Assembly (NCBI GenBank): GCA_000004985.1
Contig: GG738921.1
Direction: 5' to 3' (one strand)
Length of the DNA stretch: 64,000 bases
From: Naegleria gruberi
Taxonomy: Eukaryota
A program made the position numbers and the translations under genes. Positions 5,881 to 63,395 of this stretch are shown here, in pieces. The stretch's first letter is position 1. The number at the start of each line of letters is the position of its first letter. The notes under the pieces are model-generated. The model saw only the letters and a list, made by a program, of their open reading frames with translations. It ran no database searches and was not told where the DNA came from.

Positions 5881-6988
5881 ATGTCTGCTCAATCCATTAG
5901 CTTTTCCAAGTATACAAAATTCGACAATCACTACAGAAAACAATACGTCGAATCGATCAAGACCCAAAATGAAGAGATGAGCAAGAAATTAAATCATCCA
6001 ATGGAATGGTATTGCTCCGAGAAGGTTCATGGTTGTAATTTGAGCTTTATTGTTGATAGAGTAAGGCAATCAGAGTATAAAGTAGAGGTTGCTAATCGTT
6101 CATGTGTTCTTTCACAATCATCAATGAGCTTTTATCCAAAAACAATTGAACAGTTGGAGAAAAAGTTTGAGTGGTGAATTGAATGAACAATTGAAATTGA
6201 AGAGTGTTCAAATTTATGGTGAATTATTTGGTGGATTATTCCCAAATAAGAAACCTTCAGATGCTAAGGCAATTCAAAGTGGAATTCACTATTGTCCACA
6301 TCATGATTTTTATGCTTTTGATGTTCTTCTCGGATTTGAGAATGGAAAACAATCTTGGGCTGTTTTTAACAATGTTGATCCATTGTTGGATGAGTGTGGA
6401 TTCAAAGTGAGAGCTCAACCATTGTTTAAGGGAACTTTGGACGAATGTTTGGAGTTTGATGTTAAATTTAACACTAAATTACCAGAAACTTTCTATCCAG
6501 AAATTGTAAAGGAAAGAAATGCTTCCTGGAAGGATTTGGATAATATTTGTGAAGGTGTTGTCATCAAACCAACCAAGTACAATATCTTTGTGGAAACTGA
6601 AAGAGCTGTAATCAAGAAGAAGAATGAAAAATTCTTGGAAACTGAAGCTAGTGATAAACCACAACAACCAGTGAAAAAGGAAAAGGGTGACTCTGAAGAG
6701 CTAGTTCAGGTATGGAATGAACTCTCACGATACATTACCTCCAATCGTTTGGATAATGTTCTCTCAAAGATTGGAAACCTCACCAAGAGTAACATGTTCC
6801 CAGTTATGAAGGAATTCTCAAATGATGCCCTCGAAGAATTTAAATTAGATTTGGAACGTGGTGCTTTGGAAAATTGTAAACCAGTTTCTTCACTTTCAAG
6901 TGAAGATCAGAAAAAGCTCACTAAAAAGATCAATGATGCTTGTATGGTTTTAATTAAGGAACAATTAAACAAACCATCATCAGAATAA
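5881..6988 (+). CDS. ATP-dependent RNA ligase of the Rnl2 family (phage T4 gp24.1 / kinetoplastid REL-like). The reading frame is broken once, at an A5 run at 6160-6164.
   Basis: The nucleotidyltransferase motifs are all present: motif I EKVHGCNLSF (KxHG), motif III HHDFYAFDV, motif IV EGVVIKP, motif V AVIKKKNEKF. The Rnl2-specific C-terminal domain is also present (SDKPQQPVKKEKGD...NRLDNVLSKIGNL). The N-terminus aligns with T4 Rnl2 (KYTKFDNHYRKQYVESI against KYSSLENHYNSKFIEKL; EWYCSEKVHGCNLSFIVDR against EWVAREKIHGTNFSLIIER). Supplied ORFs 5881-6177 and 6146-6988 are the two frames. Removing one A from the run restores a continuous 368-aa protein. Confidence 0.8.
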
Positions 6989-17888: not shown

Positions 17889-19670
17889 TTATTGGAATGG
17901 TTCCAATTCAATTTCGAAAACTGAAACTGGTGTCTTCAAACCAAAGTTAGAAGCAACTTCTGGATGAATAATACCGAAAATACCAATCTTCTTGCCCTTG
18001 TAGAAGATATCAGCTTGTCTACCTGGCAAGAAGCTAATATCGTTAGATGGGAAAATTGAGAAACAGTGCTTATCAACAGATTGGCTATGTTCAACTTCGA
18101 ATGGAACAGCTAAAACTTCCATAACTCTGTCAACCAAACCGTGAATCAGTTCCAAACCCGATGTAGCAGATGAGAAGAGAGCAGCAAGTCTTCTATTATT
18201 CTTAGCACCAACATCCTTAGAATCATCAACTAAAATAACATCACCACATTCGAACAATTTGATTGGCAATGGCAATGACTTGTTGCTTTGCAAGGTCTTT
18301 AACAAACCTGGAATCAAACTAATTCTAGCAGTCTTGAATTCGAATGGACATGGTTCAGCAACAGCAATAGCAGTCTTACCATCGTTGACTCTGTTCATGT
18401 ATTTAAAGTTTTCTTCATCGTTACAGAGAATCAAGGACAAAACTTCAGTATATCCTGACATGGCGAGTTCAAGACGCACCATTTCTGACAATTGGTTCAA
18501 TTCATTTTCCTTACCAACAGTTGAAGACTTTGGGAAAGTAATTGGGATATTGTTGTAACCATGAGCAATGGCAACATCTTCCATAATATCACAAGCATGT
18601 AAAACGTCTGAACGAGTTGGTGGAGCAAGAACTCTCAATTCATTATTTTGAGTGACAGTAGCATTCAATTGCATCTTTGTCAAAATTTCTGCAATTTGTT
18701 GAGCAGATAAATTCAAACCAATTCTACTATTAATATAGTCGCTATTTGTAGTGAATTCAACATTATCAAGAATTGGAGTAGGTTCATCCTTTGATTGAGT
18801 CTTATCTTCATATACAATTTCAACTTGTTCAACTGTGAATGGAACAGAGCAATGTTCAGAGAACATGGTAACAACAGTATTCAAGACAACCTTAGCCTTT
18901 GTCAAATCAGTTGCAGTACATTCAATGAAAACATTCTTTGTAGACATTTTGATCTTTGAGTGATCTCCGTTAATAATTGGTGGCAAAGACAAAACTCTTC
19001 TCTTAGCATCTAAAATAACTGGATAAACTGGACTATCCTTGATAATCTTAGTGTAAGGGGACAAGTGCTTCATTTCACTTCCCTTTTTTTCAATAAAAGC
19101 GAAAAGTTCGTCAGCATCCATTAATTCAGTTCTATCCAAAGGAATGAATTTGATTTCTTTTGGTGGAAGAGCTTCATATGTGAAAGGACCTTCAATAACA
19201 TCCAAATCGTGAGTACCAATAGCAACGAGGGTTCTCTTTCTACAAATATTTTGATGAAGCTTTTCTTGTAAATCAATGAAACTATTGTAGGCATCTTCGG
19301 TGAAGGTGATATTTCTCAAGACAGCACCAACAACAAATTTACGGATTGATCCAGTTTCCTTTTTCACGTTAATCTTTAACAATTGTTTGGTTTTGGAATT
19401 ATCAATTTTATAGGTTGGAGCATCTTGACGACCGAGGAAAATGTTCAAAGCTCTGCTCAAGCCTTCTTCACAGAGTAAATCGTATCTGTTGGCTGGGATT
19501 TCAATCTTGTAGATGACTTCATCGGAGAGTTTGCTTGTATCCTTTGCAGAACCCAATTCCTTTTCCTTCATCAATCTTTCAGAGGTAACATCATCCAATT
19601 CAATACCAAAATCAAAACAAAGTTGCTCAAAATCGGCATCGGCTATAGGAGATATTTTTTTAATTTTCAT
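17889..19670 (-). CDS. FARSB: Phenylalanine--tRNA ligase beta subunit, cytoplasmic/eukaryotic type (593 aa).
   Basis: Strong collinear similarity to eukaryotic PheRS beta (FEQLCFDFGIELDDVTSE, IPANRYDLLCEEGLSRAL). Continuous ORF from ATG 19670 to stop 17889. Confidence 0.85.
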   Translation of the reverse strand: MKIKKISPIADADFEQLCFDFGIELDDVTSERLMKEKELGSAKDTSKLSDEVIYKIEIPANRYDLLCEEGLSRALNIFLGRQDAPTYKIDNSKTKQLLKINVKKETGSIRKFVVGAVLRNITFTEDAYNSFIDLQEKLHQNICRKRTLVAIGTHDLDVIEGPFTYEALPPKEIKFIPLDRTELMDADELFAFIEKKGSEMKHLSPYTKIIKDSPVYPVILDAKRRVLSLPPIINGDHSKIKMSTKNVFIECTATDLTKAKVVLNTVVTMFSEHCSVPFTVEQVEIVYEDKTQSKDEPTPILDNVEFTTNSDYINSRIGLNLSAQQIAEILTKMQLNATVTQNNELRVLAPPTRSDVLHACDIMEDVAIAHGYNNIPITFPKSSTVGKENELNQLSEMVRLELAMSGYTEVLSLILCNDEENFKYMNRVNDGKTAIAVAEPCPFEFKTARISLIPGLLKTLQSNKSLPLPIKLFECGDVILVDDSKDVGAKNNRRLAALFSSATSGLELIHGLVDRVMEVLAVPFEVEHSQSVDKHCFSIFPSNDISFLPGRQADIFYKGKKIGIFGIIHPEVASNFGLKTPVSVFEIELEPFQ

Positions 19671-23077: not shown

Positions 23078-23129
23078 GCGTCGATGGTTTAGTGGTAGAA
23101 TACGGCGGGTTCAATTCCCGGTCGACGCA
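23078..23129 (+). pseudogene. tRNA-Gly(GCC)-derived 52-nt element lacking the entire anticodon arm.
   Basis: GCGTCGATGGTTTAGTGGTAGAATACGGCG|GGTTCAATTCCCGGTCGACGCA has an intact acceptor stem, D arm and T arm. The 19-nt anticodon stem-loop, present in the related copy at 58042-58099, is deleted. It shares about 12 nt of 5' flank (gtgaagcg) with that copy. Confidence 0.6.
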
Positions 23130-23331
23130 GCAGAAAGCAATAATTTTGTTCAATTAAAGCTTTTAATGTGAATTGTTTTTACACTACAATCTAGACATAC
23201 CATACTACACGAATCTCAAATACCACATTTTCATTCTTTATATTAGAAAAGATATTAATCAAAGTTAAGACCTCATTTTTTTATTGTGTTTTGTTTTTTA
23301 AAAAATGCAAGTAATGAAAATTTAACAAACT

Positions 23332-28178: not shown

Positions 28179-28265
28179 TCCGATGAGACGGAATCGAACC
28201 GCCGACCACAGGATGACAGTTTTTCTTGCTACAGTCCCATGCTCTACCAGCTGAGCTATCATCGG
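28179..28265 (-). tRNA. tRNA-Tyr (anticodon GTA) with a 14-nt intron 3' of the anticodon.
   Basis: CCGATGATAGCTCAGCTGGTAGAGCATGGGACTGTAG[caagaaaaactgtc]ATCCTGTGGTCGGCGGTTCGATTCCGTCTCATCGG. The acceptor stem pairs perfectly and the intron position is canonical for eukaryotic tRNA-Tyr. Confidence 0.85.
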
Positions 28266-40555: not shown

Positions 40556-40626
40556 TGCATTAGCCGGGAGTCGAACCCGGGTCACCAGCTTGGAAGGCTG
40601 GTATGATACCGTTACACTACTAATGC
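40556..40626 (-). tRNA. tRNA-Gly (anticodon TCC).
   Basis: GCATTAGTAGTGTAACGGTATCATACCAGCCTTCCAAGCTGGTGACCCGGGTTCGACTCCCGGCTAATGC+A. The acceptor stem pairs perfectly, the anticodon loop is CTTCCAA, and the T-loop is TTCGACT. Confidence 0.8.
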
Positions 40627-56321: not shown

Positions 56322-56438
56322 ATAATCCACTTCCAAGTACCCAAATGTTCATGACATATATAATAATGATGATGACAGGTTTAAAGTTCCCCAAAATTAT
56401 TTCCATGAACATTTGAGTACTTGGAAGTGGATTCTCAT
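56322..56438. repeat. Imperfect inverted repeat: about 32-bp arms with about 30/32 matching, separated by a 50-bp spacer.
   Basis: Arm 1 is ataatccacttccaagtacccaaatgttcatg. Arm 2 is catgaacatttgagtacttggaagtggattctcat. It lies between the DUF4116 gene start and the stop of the 56435-57522 gene. Confidence 0.6.
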
Positions 56439-57522
56439 CTTTGCATTTCAGTACTGTGTGAAATACAAGTATAGCCAGTGAGTATCATTATTTTAATTGG
56501 ATCGATAGTTCTATTCCATTCCAATAAGATACTCTCCTGAAAAACTTTAGTTTCATTTAGTCTCTTTAGGGCGCTTGTTTTAACAATGGATGCATTTTGT
56601 AATCGATGTAAAATGATTAGATTTTCAATGGATTTCTGTGCATTTTCAATGGAAATCTCAATTTCACCTCTTTTTAAATCAATCTTGTTGATTACGAAAA
56701 CTATCGAAAAAGAGTTTCGTTTTTTAAAACGAATTATATCACAAAGAATCTTGTTTAAACTTTGGACTGAATCCTTTTGATCCAAGCTACAAACAAGCAC
56801 GAAACACGACTGTTCCGTACACATTTTCCTAACTTCTTCTTCTCTTTTTTCCTTTTCGTCTTGCACTTCATAATAATCTTTTTCCATTATTAGAATGTTA
56901 AAATTACATTCAAATTATATTTTCGTACCTAGTTCTTTAACTCTAATAGTCAATTCTACACCATCAATCTCTAATTTTATCCTCCTTGAAGACAATATCT
57001 TCCTATTAGGCGATCTATCAAATAATCCATCAGCAACTCGCCTCACAATACACCTCTTTCCAACATTGTCAATTCCCAAAAGAAGAGCAAACATTTCCTT
57101 TTCTGGTTTGGATTTCATCCTTAATTTTCTCTTCATGCACGAAATTAAAACTTTTCTTCGCATTGAAACCTTTGGATTGGAAAGAATTTTGTAAATTGCT
57201 TCAAACTCATGATGGTGTTGTCTGAAATAGAGTGTATCCTTCATTTCCTTTTTCTGTTTCAAATTCTGTACATCTTTCCAGGTTTCCATGTCCAATTCCT
57301 TGTCCACATCACATTCATATCTAAACAATTTAAATTTCATCATGAAATAATTCCACCAAAACTCATCAAAATAATCATCAAGATCCTGCATATGCATTGC
57401 ATATTAAACATATCCCAATGATACCCAAGAATATCCAAATCATCATCTTGATCATTCCTAATAAACTTCATTATCAAGAGAAGAATTTCTGGAGGTAAGG
57501 AAGTAAAAAGTTCTCGTTTCAT
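56435..57522 (-). CDS. F-box-like N-terminus fused to a divergent Ras-like GTPase. There is a 51-nt intron (56878-56928) and a frame break near 57400.
   Basis: ORF 57340-57522 begins MKRELFTSLPPEILLLIMKFIRND (F-box pattern). ORF 56915-57397 carries the G1-like LLGIDNVGKR. Donor cta g|GTACGA and acceptor aaaaag|at restore the frame across an in-frame TAA. The 3' exon has NKID (G4) and TSAL (G5). The F-box and GTPase ORFs overlap in different frames. Confidence 0.45.
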
Positions 57523-57712
57523 TTTTTTTTAGAAAAGTTCATCGGGTTTGAGGCATTTAAAAAAAATGAGGTACAAACTTTGATTTATATATAGCTCAAT
57601 ATAAATTATTAAAATTCAAAAATTGAGAATATTGTATAATGGTATGCCTAGGTTACAATTTGAAACAATGAGTGACTCAATTGTTATGATGATTAAAAAT
57701 TAATGTTATGAC

Positions 57713-58099
57713 TGCGTCGACCGGGAATTGAAATTCCTTTTTAGGAATATTATATTTAATATTTAAATAGTTTACAATATTGAATAATGAACAACGTGTA
57801 AATGTGTTGAAGTAGGGTACCCGTGAGTCGATTCACCATATTTGGAAAGGTACCATTCAAGAACAACAACAATAAATGTATTTAATATTAATTATTTGAT
57901 ACCGGGAGTCGCTTTTCCTTTTTGGGAATGTTGTATGTGTGTTATAAACTGGTCGACGCATTTAAAATTTTTTAATTTTTTTAAAAAAATGAAATTGGGT
58001 AACGGGAGACGGTTTACTATATATGGAACATTCAAACATACAATTGAACCCGGGTCACGGCGATGGCAACGCCGTATTCTACCACTAAACCATCGACGC
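57713..58099 (-). pseudogene. tRNA-Gly(GCC) gene split by a 309-bp insertion in the T-loop.
   Basis: The 5' part (58099-58042) is gcgtcgatggtttagtggtagaatacggcgttgccatcgccgtgacccgggttcaatt, which includes the anticodon GCC. The 3' part (57732-57713) is ttcaattcccggtcgacgca. The 7-bp ttcaatt is duplicated at both junctions. Confidence 0.65.
57733..58041. mobile_element. 309-bp insertion within the tRNA-Gly(GCC) gene, flanked by a 7-bp target-site duplication (aattgaa on the plus strand). It is AT-rich, non-coding, and contains short tRNA-like and palindromic motifs.
   Basis: Direct repeats at 57726-57732 and 58042-58048 lie exactly at the break in tRNA continuity. Internal ttcctttttaggaa and ttcctttttgggaa palindromes each sit next to a ccgggagNcg motif. 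Confidence 0.45.
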
Positions 58100-58325: not shown

Positions 58326-59059
58326 ATGCCTCACGATCCTACTCGTCTTCAACATTTAATCAAAAACTATTACAAGTCAGACTTGGAAAAGATTCACAAG
58401 AATTATGAAAGAATTTGTGATAGATACAATTTGGAAAAGAAGGATTTTCTGAATGATGTCTCTCTGTACAATCATTGTGATTTACTGAGCGTTTCCAATA
58501 TTTATTCAACCATCAGGAACGAATCATTAAAGATTATTCCAGTAGACTATGTGGAAACCTTCAAGAAGAGAAAGAGAAATCAAAACACCACCACTTTAGG
58601 TGAAGACTCTGACGAAACAGAAGCAAAATCTGCCAAAACATCATCCGACAAGACCTGTGCTCACTGTGGTGGCTCCGAATTCATCTTTGTTTGTAATGGT
58701 AACAGTGATGGCATGTATTTGGAGTTTCCAAATGGTAGAACAGTCTCTGGACAAACTCCACAGCTGACAGCATTAACAGATGGTGATGGAGTTTCTCTCC
58801 ATGTTTGTGTTGGTAAGTTTTCTTCTTCATCACTGGAATGTAATATTGTTATTATTATTTGATGAAAATTCGTGATGATATCTTATGATGATGATTAAAA
58901 GGATGTGGAATGGTTCATGGATTCAACTCTACCCAACTCAAGAGAGATTTGGAAAGGTACGAATTTGCTCTGGAAGATATGAACGAAGCTGATCAAGATG
59001 AATTACTCTTCGAAGAGGATGACAACAACAACAGCAAGAATAAACTTTCACCATGTTGA
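58326..59059 (+). CDS. Zinc-ribbon protein with a Yippee/Mis18-like (Mss4-like fold) C-terminal domain. Two exons: 58326-58812 and 58902-59059.
   Basis: The exon join is g|GTAAGT to ttaaaag, in phase 1. The first CxxC is TCAHCGGSEFIFVC. The second CxxC is HVCVGCGMVHGF, spanning the intron. Acidic tail. Confidence 0.4.
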
Positions 59060-63323: not shown

Positions 63324-63395
63324 GCCGCTATAGCTCAGAGGAAGAGCTTCGATCTCCTAAGTCGAAGGTCGCCGGTTCGAGCCCGGCTAGTGGTA
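63324..63395 (+). tRNA. tRNA-Arg (anticodon CCT).
   Basis: GCCGCTATAGCTCAGAGGAAGAGCTTCGATCTCCTAAGTCGAAGGTCGCCGGTTCGAGCCCGGCTAGTGGT+A. The cloverleaf is good, with acceptor G-U pairs and a T-loop of TTCGAGC. Confidence 0.8.

Follow-up and report, generated by a model that had tools for sequence, protein, structure and literature searches.

A tRNA-Gly(GCC) gene of Naegleria gruberi split in its T-loop by an internally duplicated 309-nt insert

A stretch of 64,000 nt from contig GG738921.1 of Naegleria gruberi (assembly GCA_000004985.1), referred to below as the window, of an amoeboflagellate, contains a tRNA-Gly(GCC) gene between positions 57713 and 58099 that is divided into two parts by an insert of 309 nt (58041–57733). 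The gene and all features of the insert described below are given for the minus strand. The 5' part (58042–58099) covers tRNA positions 1–60 and comprises the acceptor 5' strand, the D arm, the anticodon arm, the variable loop, the T-stem 5' strand and, at its end, the T-loop; the sequence from 58099 to 58042 is GCGTCGATGGTTTAGTGGTAGAATACGGCGTTGCCATCGCCGTGACCCGGGTTCAATT. The remaining tRNA (57713–57725) consists of the T-stem 3' strand, the acceptor 3' strand and the discriminator A, and is preceded by a second copy of the heptamer TTCAATT, the sequence from 57732 to 57713 being TTCAATTCCCGGTCGACGCA, i.e., TTCAATT-CCCGGTCGACGCA. This heptamer is present at both edges of the insert, namely, at 58042–58048, where it makes up the entire T-loop of the 5' part, and at 57726–57732. 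It is exactly the 7-nt loop enclosed by the two T-stem strands, CCGGG and CCCGG, that is duplicated. The gene's own terminator for RNA polymerase III (Pol III), a run of five T residues (57695–57699), is located 14 nt beyond the 3' end of the tRNA.

The locus as it stands was not called as a tRNA either by ARAGORN or by Rfam; in E-value mode, Rfam matched the 5' part only, with 18.8 bits. When the insert and one copy of the heptamer were deleted, ARAGORN returned a perfect 71-nt tRNA-Gly(GCC) cloverleaf, which confirms the original prediction, made from the letters of the window, of a tRNA-Gly(GCC) gene that is cut in the T-loop by a 309-bp insert between direct repeats of 7 bp. L004, a Naegleria-like metagenome contig, contains the identical 71 nt in one piece and with only one TTCAATT at positions 207–277, with positions 207–264 equal to the 5' part of the split gene and a T5 terminator 8 nt downstream of the tRNA. 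This contig was the only one matched when the JGI metagenomes were scanned with a Naegleria-specific 22-mer of the split tRNA. On sequence grounds, its tRNA-Gly(GCC) gene can serve as the empty-site reference for the insertion. The match of the two tRNA parts is not due to chance, because the halves are exactly complementary to each other as parts of one tRNA, no nucleotide is missing and the heptamer is the sole surplus.

The insert (57733–58041) has a GC content of 29%, compared with 34% in the 64-kb window, and its description as non-coding and AT-rich in the original prediction was borne out. When the stop-free frames were concatenated into a protein query, which was also meant to pick up spurious ORF calls over further copies, 5.8 billion sequences yielded no protein relative, the sole match being a weak 20-aa read-through of a tRNA-Gly gene from an unrelated organism. 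The insert also lacked a match in Rfam, and no match to the tRNA covariance model was detected within it at E-values up to 10. Internally, it is a head-to-tail dimer of a unit of about 130 nt. The 5'-proximal copy, E2 (57915–58041), is 127 nt long, and the 3'-proximal copy, E1 (57733–57870), which does not contain a run of four or more T residues on the tRNA strand, is 138 nt long. In an end-to-end alignment, the two units share 80% identity over the aligned pairs, with many indels; the score of this global alignment corresponds to z=5.4 against 1000 dinucleotide shuffles and exceeds that of all 3162 background windows from the same genome segment. No tandem array was reported for the insert by Tandem Repeats Finder, and neither unit aligned significantly to any tRNA of the window. 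An array of degenerate tRNA pseudogenes was, therefore, rejected as an identity of the two units.

The hairpin ATTCCYAAAAAGGAA(T) forms the end of both units; behind it come a stretch that resembles a T-loop and then CCCGGT. The hairpin of E2 is ATTCCCAAAAAGGAA (57915–57929), and that of E1, which abuts the 3' copy of the heptamer, is ATTCCTAAAAAGGAAT (57733–57748). The two palindromic cores pointed out previously (57734–57748 and 57915–57929), along with the T-arm-like motifs next to them, are indeed present in the insert, as parts of this larger internal duplication. Directly behind the E2 hairpin is a fossil junction, AAGCGACT-CCCGGT (57901–57914; z=4.9), and its register matches that of the real junction, TTTCAATT-CCCGGT, behind the E1 hairpin. 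The fossil junction is followed by an AT-rich linker of 30 nt (57871–57900) that ends in TTTATT directly before E1. Thus, E1 is preceded by TTTATT, a degenerate version of the heptamer, and E2 by TTCAATT itself. Both units are bracketed by loop-like sequence and followed, in each case, by a T-stem 3' strand, with the inner bracket decayed and the outer one perfect.

Two further similarities within the locus were of limited significance. The 10-mer TGCGTCGACC (57951–57960) repeats the tRNA 3' end, GGTCGACGCA, exactly in inverted orientation, with marginal significance (z=3.0). It is found in E2 only, 81–90 nt into the insert; when the entire locus is folded at minimum energy, it takes the place of the 5' acceptor strand as the pairing partner of the 3' acceptor strand. 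In addition, the 3' part of E1 (57746–57789) resembles a portion (57598–57641) of the conserved block downstream of the gene itself, described below, with 70% identity over 44 nt and z=4.0 against shuffles. This score was equalled by 1.4% of the AT-rich background windows. The likeness is, therefore, probably compositional, and the possibility that the insert is a copy of the gene's own downstream flank was discarded.

The insert bears directly on whether this gene copy can be expressed. E2 contains a run of seven T residues that resembles a Pol III terminator (57983–57989), followed by a run of four (57964–57967). All bona fide tRNA genes in the window and in L004 end with runs of four to six T residues that are located 4–15 nt downstream of the tRNA. 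Because such runs are present on the tRNA strand of the insert and genuine tRNA genes here end at T4–T6, Pol III transcription should terminate about 55 nt into the insert. Furthermore, the B box is split by the insert. Given the internal terminator runs and the split B box, the divided copy most likely makes no tRNA and is a dead gene copy. The tandem dimer and the Pol III terminator within the insert, as well as a second relic of a tRNA-Gly(GCC) gene at 23078–23129, described below, are new beyond the original prediction.

The simplest and best reading of the split gene is an insertion with a target-site duplication, and the insert itself is most likely a small, still unclassified, internally duplicated mobile element. 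In specific terms, we propose that a preformed, composite, non-autonomous element was inserted recently into the T-loop, with a 7-bp target duplication, and killed this gene copy; we give this proposal about an even chance of being correct. The 309-bp non-coding piece would have entered the T-loop of one N. gruberi copy of tRNA-Gly(GCC), whereby the loop TTCAATT was duplicated as the target site. A duplication of precisely 7 bp could result if the inverted repeat CCGGG-N7-CCCGG was cut in a staggered manner at its two borders between stem and loop. Already before its arrival, the piece would have been composite, consisting of two diverged, head-to-tail units of about 130 nt, each with the terminal hairpin ATTCCYAAAAAGGAA, and the decayed relic between the units (..CCCGGT) would be the trace of an earlier junction with a T-loop and T-stem. 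Such a piece would presumably be mobilised in trans, by an enzyme encoded elsewhere. Pol III transcripts of the split copy would end at the T7 run, yielding no tRNA. Because the inter-unit relic resembles a T-loop/T-stem junction, the sequence suggests that units of this kind previously resided in a tRNA T-loop and belong to a family with a preference for this site.

A recent arrival would also be consistent with the uneven ageing of the locus. The units differ from each other by about 20% as well as by many indels, whereas the 85 nt of tRNA and heptamers show no change compared with the intact gene. If all parts had aged jointly, at about 10% per lineage, the chance of flawless tRNA parts would be, by our own estimate, about 0.9^85, or about 1e-4. 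It follows that either the dimer is older than its arrival at this locus or the tRNA parts have been maintained. Under the first option, the dimer and its inner relic formed elsewhere and came recently in one piece, as a mobile element, as a templated insertion or by conversion from an interrupted donor; under the second option, the outer tRNA parts were maintained by gene conversion or by function. Each version with a recent arrival predicts at least one further copy of the dimer in the genome, and only the version in which the dimer formed in situ predicts none.

The closest mechanistic analogue of the insert appears to be the Dada DNA transposons. These elements occupy one fixed site inside multicopy genes for small RNAs, such as tRNA (including tRNA-Gly), small nuclear RNA (snRNA) and 5S RNA, generate target-site duplications of 6–7 bp, lack terminal inverted repeats and are found in protists (e.g., Perkinsus) and animals (PMC3706591; PMC8869645). 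They are, thus, a precedent for fixed-site transposons with such duplications in tRNA and snRNA genes (PMC3706591). The Naegleria insert shares with them the location in a multicopy tRNA gene, the 7-bp duplication and ends without terminal inverted repeats; repeated use of the same kind of site is hinted at by the fossil junction. However, Dada elements have a length of 4.7–11 kb and code for a DDE transposase that contains a DxxH motif and zinc fingers (PMC3706591), whereas the insert is 309 bp long, 15–35 times smaller, and lacks a gene. Also, in Dada, the sub-terminal inverted repeats mimic the target motif at a fixed distance from the duplication (PMC3706591). The insert lacks a sub-terminal inverted pair, and its sole inverted tRNA-derived sequence is the 10-mer that is 81–90 nt inside it and confined to one unit. 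Finally, the tRNA targets reported for Dada are the A box or the anticodon region (PMC3706591), in contrast to the T-loop targeted here. By analogy, the insert may work like a Dada-type insertion; the resemblance is one of target and duplication length, and membership in Dada is not claimed.

Several observations weigh against a mobile element. In the window and in the loci L001–L006, neither BLASTN nor nhmmer, with the insert or with a profile of E1 and E2 as the query, detected a second copy of the insert or of the unit. In the JGI metagenomes, the exact 24-nt junction had no matches. When the first 30–50 nt of the insert and of each unit were aligned to the reverse complement of the respective last 30–50 nt, neither terminal nor sub-terminal inverted repeats were found in the insert, nor terminal ones in either unit, the scores being at the shuffle mean in all cases; a separate repeat search did not yield a terminal pair either. 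Recognisable hallmarks of a transposon, a short interspersed element (SINE) or a long terminal repeat (LTR) element are missing from the insert, and genes for a transposase, a reverse transcriptase or an integrase are lacking from the 64-kb window. The insertion of a preformed element does not account for the linker between the units, and the Dada hosts compiled by Kojima and Jurka do not include N. gruberi (PMC3706591). Collections that do not include Naegleria were searched as well: the pattern of hairpin and CCCGG yielded two chance matches in bacteria among the GTDB genomes and none in IMG/VR, where the tRNA 22-mer also had no matches. The literature was searched for tRNA introns of Naegleria and for transposons in tRNA genes and yielded nothing relevant.

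Explanations that do not involve a mobile element were also weighed. The internal duplication could be of local origin, such that a single unit entered the T-loop long ago, a segment of the form [heptamer-unit-heptamer-CCCGGT...] was then duplicated in tandem, and the outer tRNA parts were homogenised by ectopic gene conversion from intact tRNA-Gly(GCC) genes; in a variant of this scenario, the entire interrupted structure was copied in by gene conversion from another interrupted copy. The fact that, on either side, the unit borders fall at the heptamer and the T-stem is compatible with such a history, and so is the relic at 23078–23129, where 52 tRNA nucleotides are perfect and the flanks are only about 70% identical to those of the split locus, a pattern that fits homogenisation. 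The weak similarity of E1 to the locus's own downstream flank (z=4.0) could be added here, but it is unexceptional given that 1.4% of the AT-rich background windows score as high. In addition, no relationship was detected between the linker and the gene's real 3' flank (z=0.9), and the conversion tracts would have to stop repeatedly inside arms of 58 nt and 20 nt without ever erasing the insert. Therefore, we consider a purely local history unlikely. Somewhat less probable still is the repair of a double-strand break or a collapsed fork at the GC-rich T-arm hairpin, during which unrelated DNA would have been copied or captured (template switching, filler DNA or an organelle fragment), with TTCAATT being junctional microhomology. 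This scenario would account for an insert that lacks transposon hallmarks, is single-copy in the window and in L001–L006, and holds short inverted patches resembling the 3' end of the tRNA itself. Nevertheless, an exact 7-nt duplication of the entire loop is what staggered cleavage would be expected to produce, whereas filler insertions usually bring deletions or microhomologies of 1–4 nt, and the donor itself would have to contain both the dimer and the fossil T-stem junction. A mitochondrial coding fragment, in particular, is an unlikely source and was rejected, because no frame of the insert matches any protein, including those of the gene-dense mitochondrial proteome of Naegleria.

A very different possibility is that the gene works, with the insert being an ectopic T-loop intron of 309 nt that is cut at a bulge-helix-bulge (BHB) motif, or with the halves being transcribed separately and then joined. 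A T-loop intron (at 53/54) with a BHB motif is known from tRNA-Ile(UAU) of Cyanidioschyzon merolae (PMC3728597). As in the nuclear introns of this alga and in non-canonical archaeal introns, a helix, a 3-nt bulge, a 4-bp helix and another 3-nt bulge can be drawn at the interrupted T-loop, here as the T-stem (5 bp), a bulge UUC, a helix AAUU:AAUU, which is possible because AATT is self-complementary, and a bulge UUC. Any symmetric cleavage in both bulges would restore the exact T-loop, and the motif would arise from only one of about 65 possible 7-nt duplications in this tRNA. The flawless exonic outer parts next to decayed inner relics would also be in line with function, as would the lack of a run of four or more T residues in E1 and the 3' part before the gene's own terminator. 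However, the T7 and T4 runs in E2 should halt Pol III, whereas in C. merolae no terminator is situated between exons, and the T-loop intron has 22 nt; known ectopic tRNA introns of eukaryotes are tens of nucleotides long, not 309 (PMC3728597). Moreover, the insert divides the B box, and there is essentially no inner helix h', because the 3' end of the presumed intron is locked in its own hairpin. The fold forced into the cloverleaf and BHB conformation has −74.7 kcal/mol compared with −81.0 kcal/mol for the free fold, that is, it is worse by 6.3 kcal/mol, and the free fold pairs the 3' acceptor strand with the inverted 10-mer of E2 (57960–57951). Uninterrupted copies of this tRNA exist in Naegleria-like DNA, the other tRNA genes of the window look conventional, with T runs downstream, and the putative intron is distinguished from the described ones also by its internal terminator and weak inner helix. 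The BHB geometry at the junctions is probably coincidental, and a working gene appears very unlikely. Least credible of all is an assembly artefact or chimeric join in the draft genome. A single assembly was examined, and repeated tRNA sequences can mislead assemblers, but a mis-join would not produce exactly complementary halves together with a clean 7-nt duplication and a unique insert that is duplicated internally.

The insertion of a small element being the favoured reading, the question arises to which of the established classes such an element might belong. The original prediction had proposed an insertion of a transposable element or of something similar to a miniature inverted-repeat transposable element (MITE). 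The first part of this proposal, insertion with a target-site duplication, remains the simplest explanation, but the second part does not hold. The insert resembles MITEs in being small, non-coding and AT-rich and in having a short target-site duplication; however, it is a direct dimer, and neither the whole nor the units have terminal inverted repeats, so that it is not a MITE in the strict sense. A tRNA-derived element, which had also been suggested, is not supported, because the insert contains neither a tRNA-like head nor any tRNA match; SINEs derived from tRNAs begin with a tRNA-related head that has A and B boxes, and the insert is not of this type. Helitron-like ends were considered and rejected, given that TC..CTRR ends and an A|T insertion site are missing, as was an LTR with a primer-binding site, given that the 10-mer that could pair with the tRNA 3' end does not include the complement of CCA and is absent from E1. 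A spliceosomal intron, considered because of the start GTATGT, was likewise rejected since excision from GT to AG would not restore the tRNA. The amoebozoan context in which the prediction had placed the insert does not apply, because N. gruberi belongs to Heterolobosea, within Discoba. The retroelements TRE5, TRE3 and DGLT-A of Dictyostelium are associated with tRNA genes, too, but these amoebozoan elements are kilobase-sized and are located at a set distance upstream or downstream of tRNA genes, whereas the insert is located inside the gene of a heterolobosean, in a window that encodes no reverse transcriptase. Prokaryotic integrative elements with tyrosine integrases recombine in the T-loop of tRNA genes, and the core sites of tyrosine recombinases have the geometry of a 7-nt loop flanked by inverted stems, which is also the geometry of the junction repeat described here. 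However, these elements carry a copy of the 3' part of the tRNA and thereby restore the gene, which the Naegleria insert does not, and the present case involves a eukaryotic host and a window without an integrase.

On the present evidence, the locus represents one broken copy of a multicopy tRNA gene and, hence, ordinary wear of a genome. Should the unit of about 130 nt recur in the T-loops of other tRNA genes of Naegleria, it would be a new site-specific non-autonomous element in Discoba, a group in which transposable elements are poorly catalogued, and would add to the small group of elements residing within multicopy RNA genes. The junction has a bearing on tRNA introns as well. Duplication of a 7-nt loop in which the last four bases are self-complementary builds the BHB geometry that is recognised by tRNA splicing endonucleases, which provides a testable idea of how ectopic tRNA introns could arise from insertions. 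If the gene did work after all, it would be without precedent beyond red algae, nucleomorphs and archaea, and it would show how a splice motif can be created, at the time of insertion, when the duplicated target site is a palindromic loop.

Five tRNA-type loci are present within 40 kb of the window (23078–63395), namely, a Gly-GCC relic, Tyr, Gly-TCC, the split Gly-GCC and Arg-CCT. The relic (23078–23129, plus strand), which was called neither by ARAGORN nor by Rfam, has the same sequence as the split gene minus 19 nt. It lacks tRNA positions 32–51, and with them the anticodon loop, the 3' strand of the anticodon stem, the variable loop and the first part of the T-stem; a microhomology of CG is present where the ends of the deletion meet, and the 52 nt that are left do not differ from the intact gene. 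Thus, two of the five loci are damaged copies of one family in which the tRNA parts are flawless, a situation that is compatible either with rapid turnover of the genes or with their homogenisation through gene conversion. The tRNA-Tyr(GTA) gene (28179–28265, minus strand), found by Rfam and, in its intron mode only, by ARAGORN, contains a conventional 14-nt intron at 37/38, which shows that Naegleria uses ordinary anticodon-loop introns in tRNA genes. The tRNA genes for Gly-TCC and Arg-CCT are located at 40556–40626 (minus strand) and 63324–63395 (plus strand), respectively. The Gly-TCC and Gly-GCC tRNAs have the T-stem CCGGG/CCCGG in common and differ in the loop (TTCGACT versus TTCAATT).

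Both Gly(GCC) loci are followed, at a distance of 57–58 nt, by a conserved block of 96 nt that ends in CCTCATTTTTTT. The two copies (23188–23282 on the plus strand and 57654–57560 on the minus strand) are about 73% identical, with a local alignment score of 63 compared with 20.7 ± 3.2 for shuffled sequences. No other copy of the block was found in the window, nor did it yield a consensus structure or an Rfam match. It may be part of a duplicated tRNA unit of about 220 bp or, alternatively, a separate element at a fixed distance from the tRNA. The genes adjoining the two loci are unrelated, so that the shared unit amounts to approximately the tRNA and 150 nt of its 3' flank.

The window has a GC content of 29–37% and is densely populated with eukaryotic genes, including those for RGS, F-box/LRR, actin, RCC1 and adenylate cyclase proteins. 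An open reading frame (ORF) of 593 aa for the beta subunit of phenylalanyl-tRNA synthetase (PheRS-beta; 17889–19670, minus strand) is 100% identical to an N. gruberi protein, and the next matches are an ENA contig (76%), N. fowleri (72%) and Willaertia magna (67%). In the PheRS neighbourhoods of the 76%-identical Naegleria contig from ENA and of N. fowleri, there was no tRNA-Gly gene and no neighbouring gene in common with the window. About 11 kb from PheRS-beta, the window contains an ORF for an RNA ligase of the T4 Rnl2 type (6146–6988, plus strand), and RNA ligase genes (PF09414/PF18043 and PF09511; L002, 1948–4733) are located a few kb from PheRS-beta also in N. fowleri; this proximity is the sole sign of a conserved neighbourhood between the two species here. 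The split tRNA gene is situated in a divergent region of about 800 bp between an F-box-like ORF and an ORF on the plus strand (58326–58862). The F-box-like ORF starts with MKRELFTSLPPEILLLIMKF and extends from 57530 downwards on the minus strand, about 180 nt downstream of the split tRNA; it is followed by two ORFs that resemble small GTPases (56915–57397 and 56435–56887).

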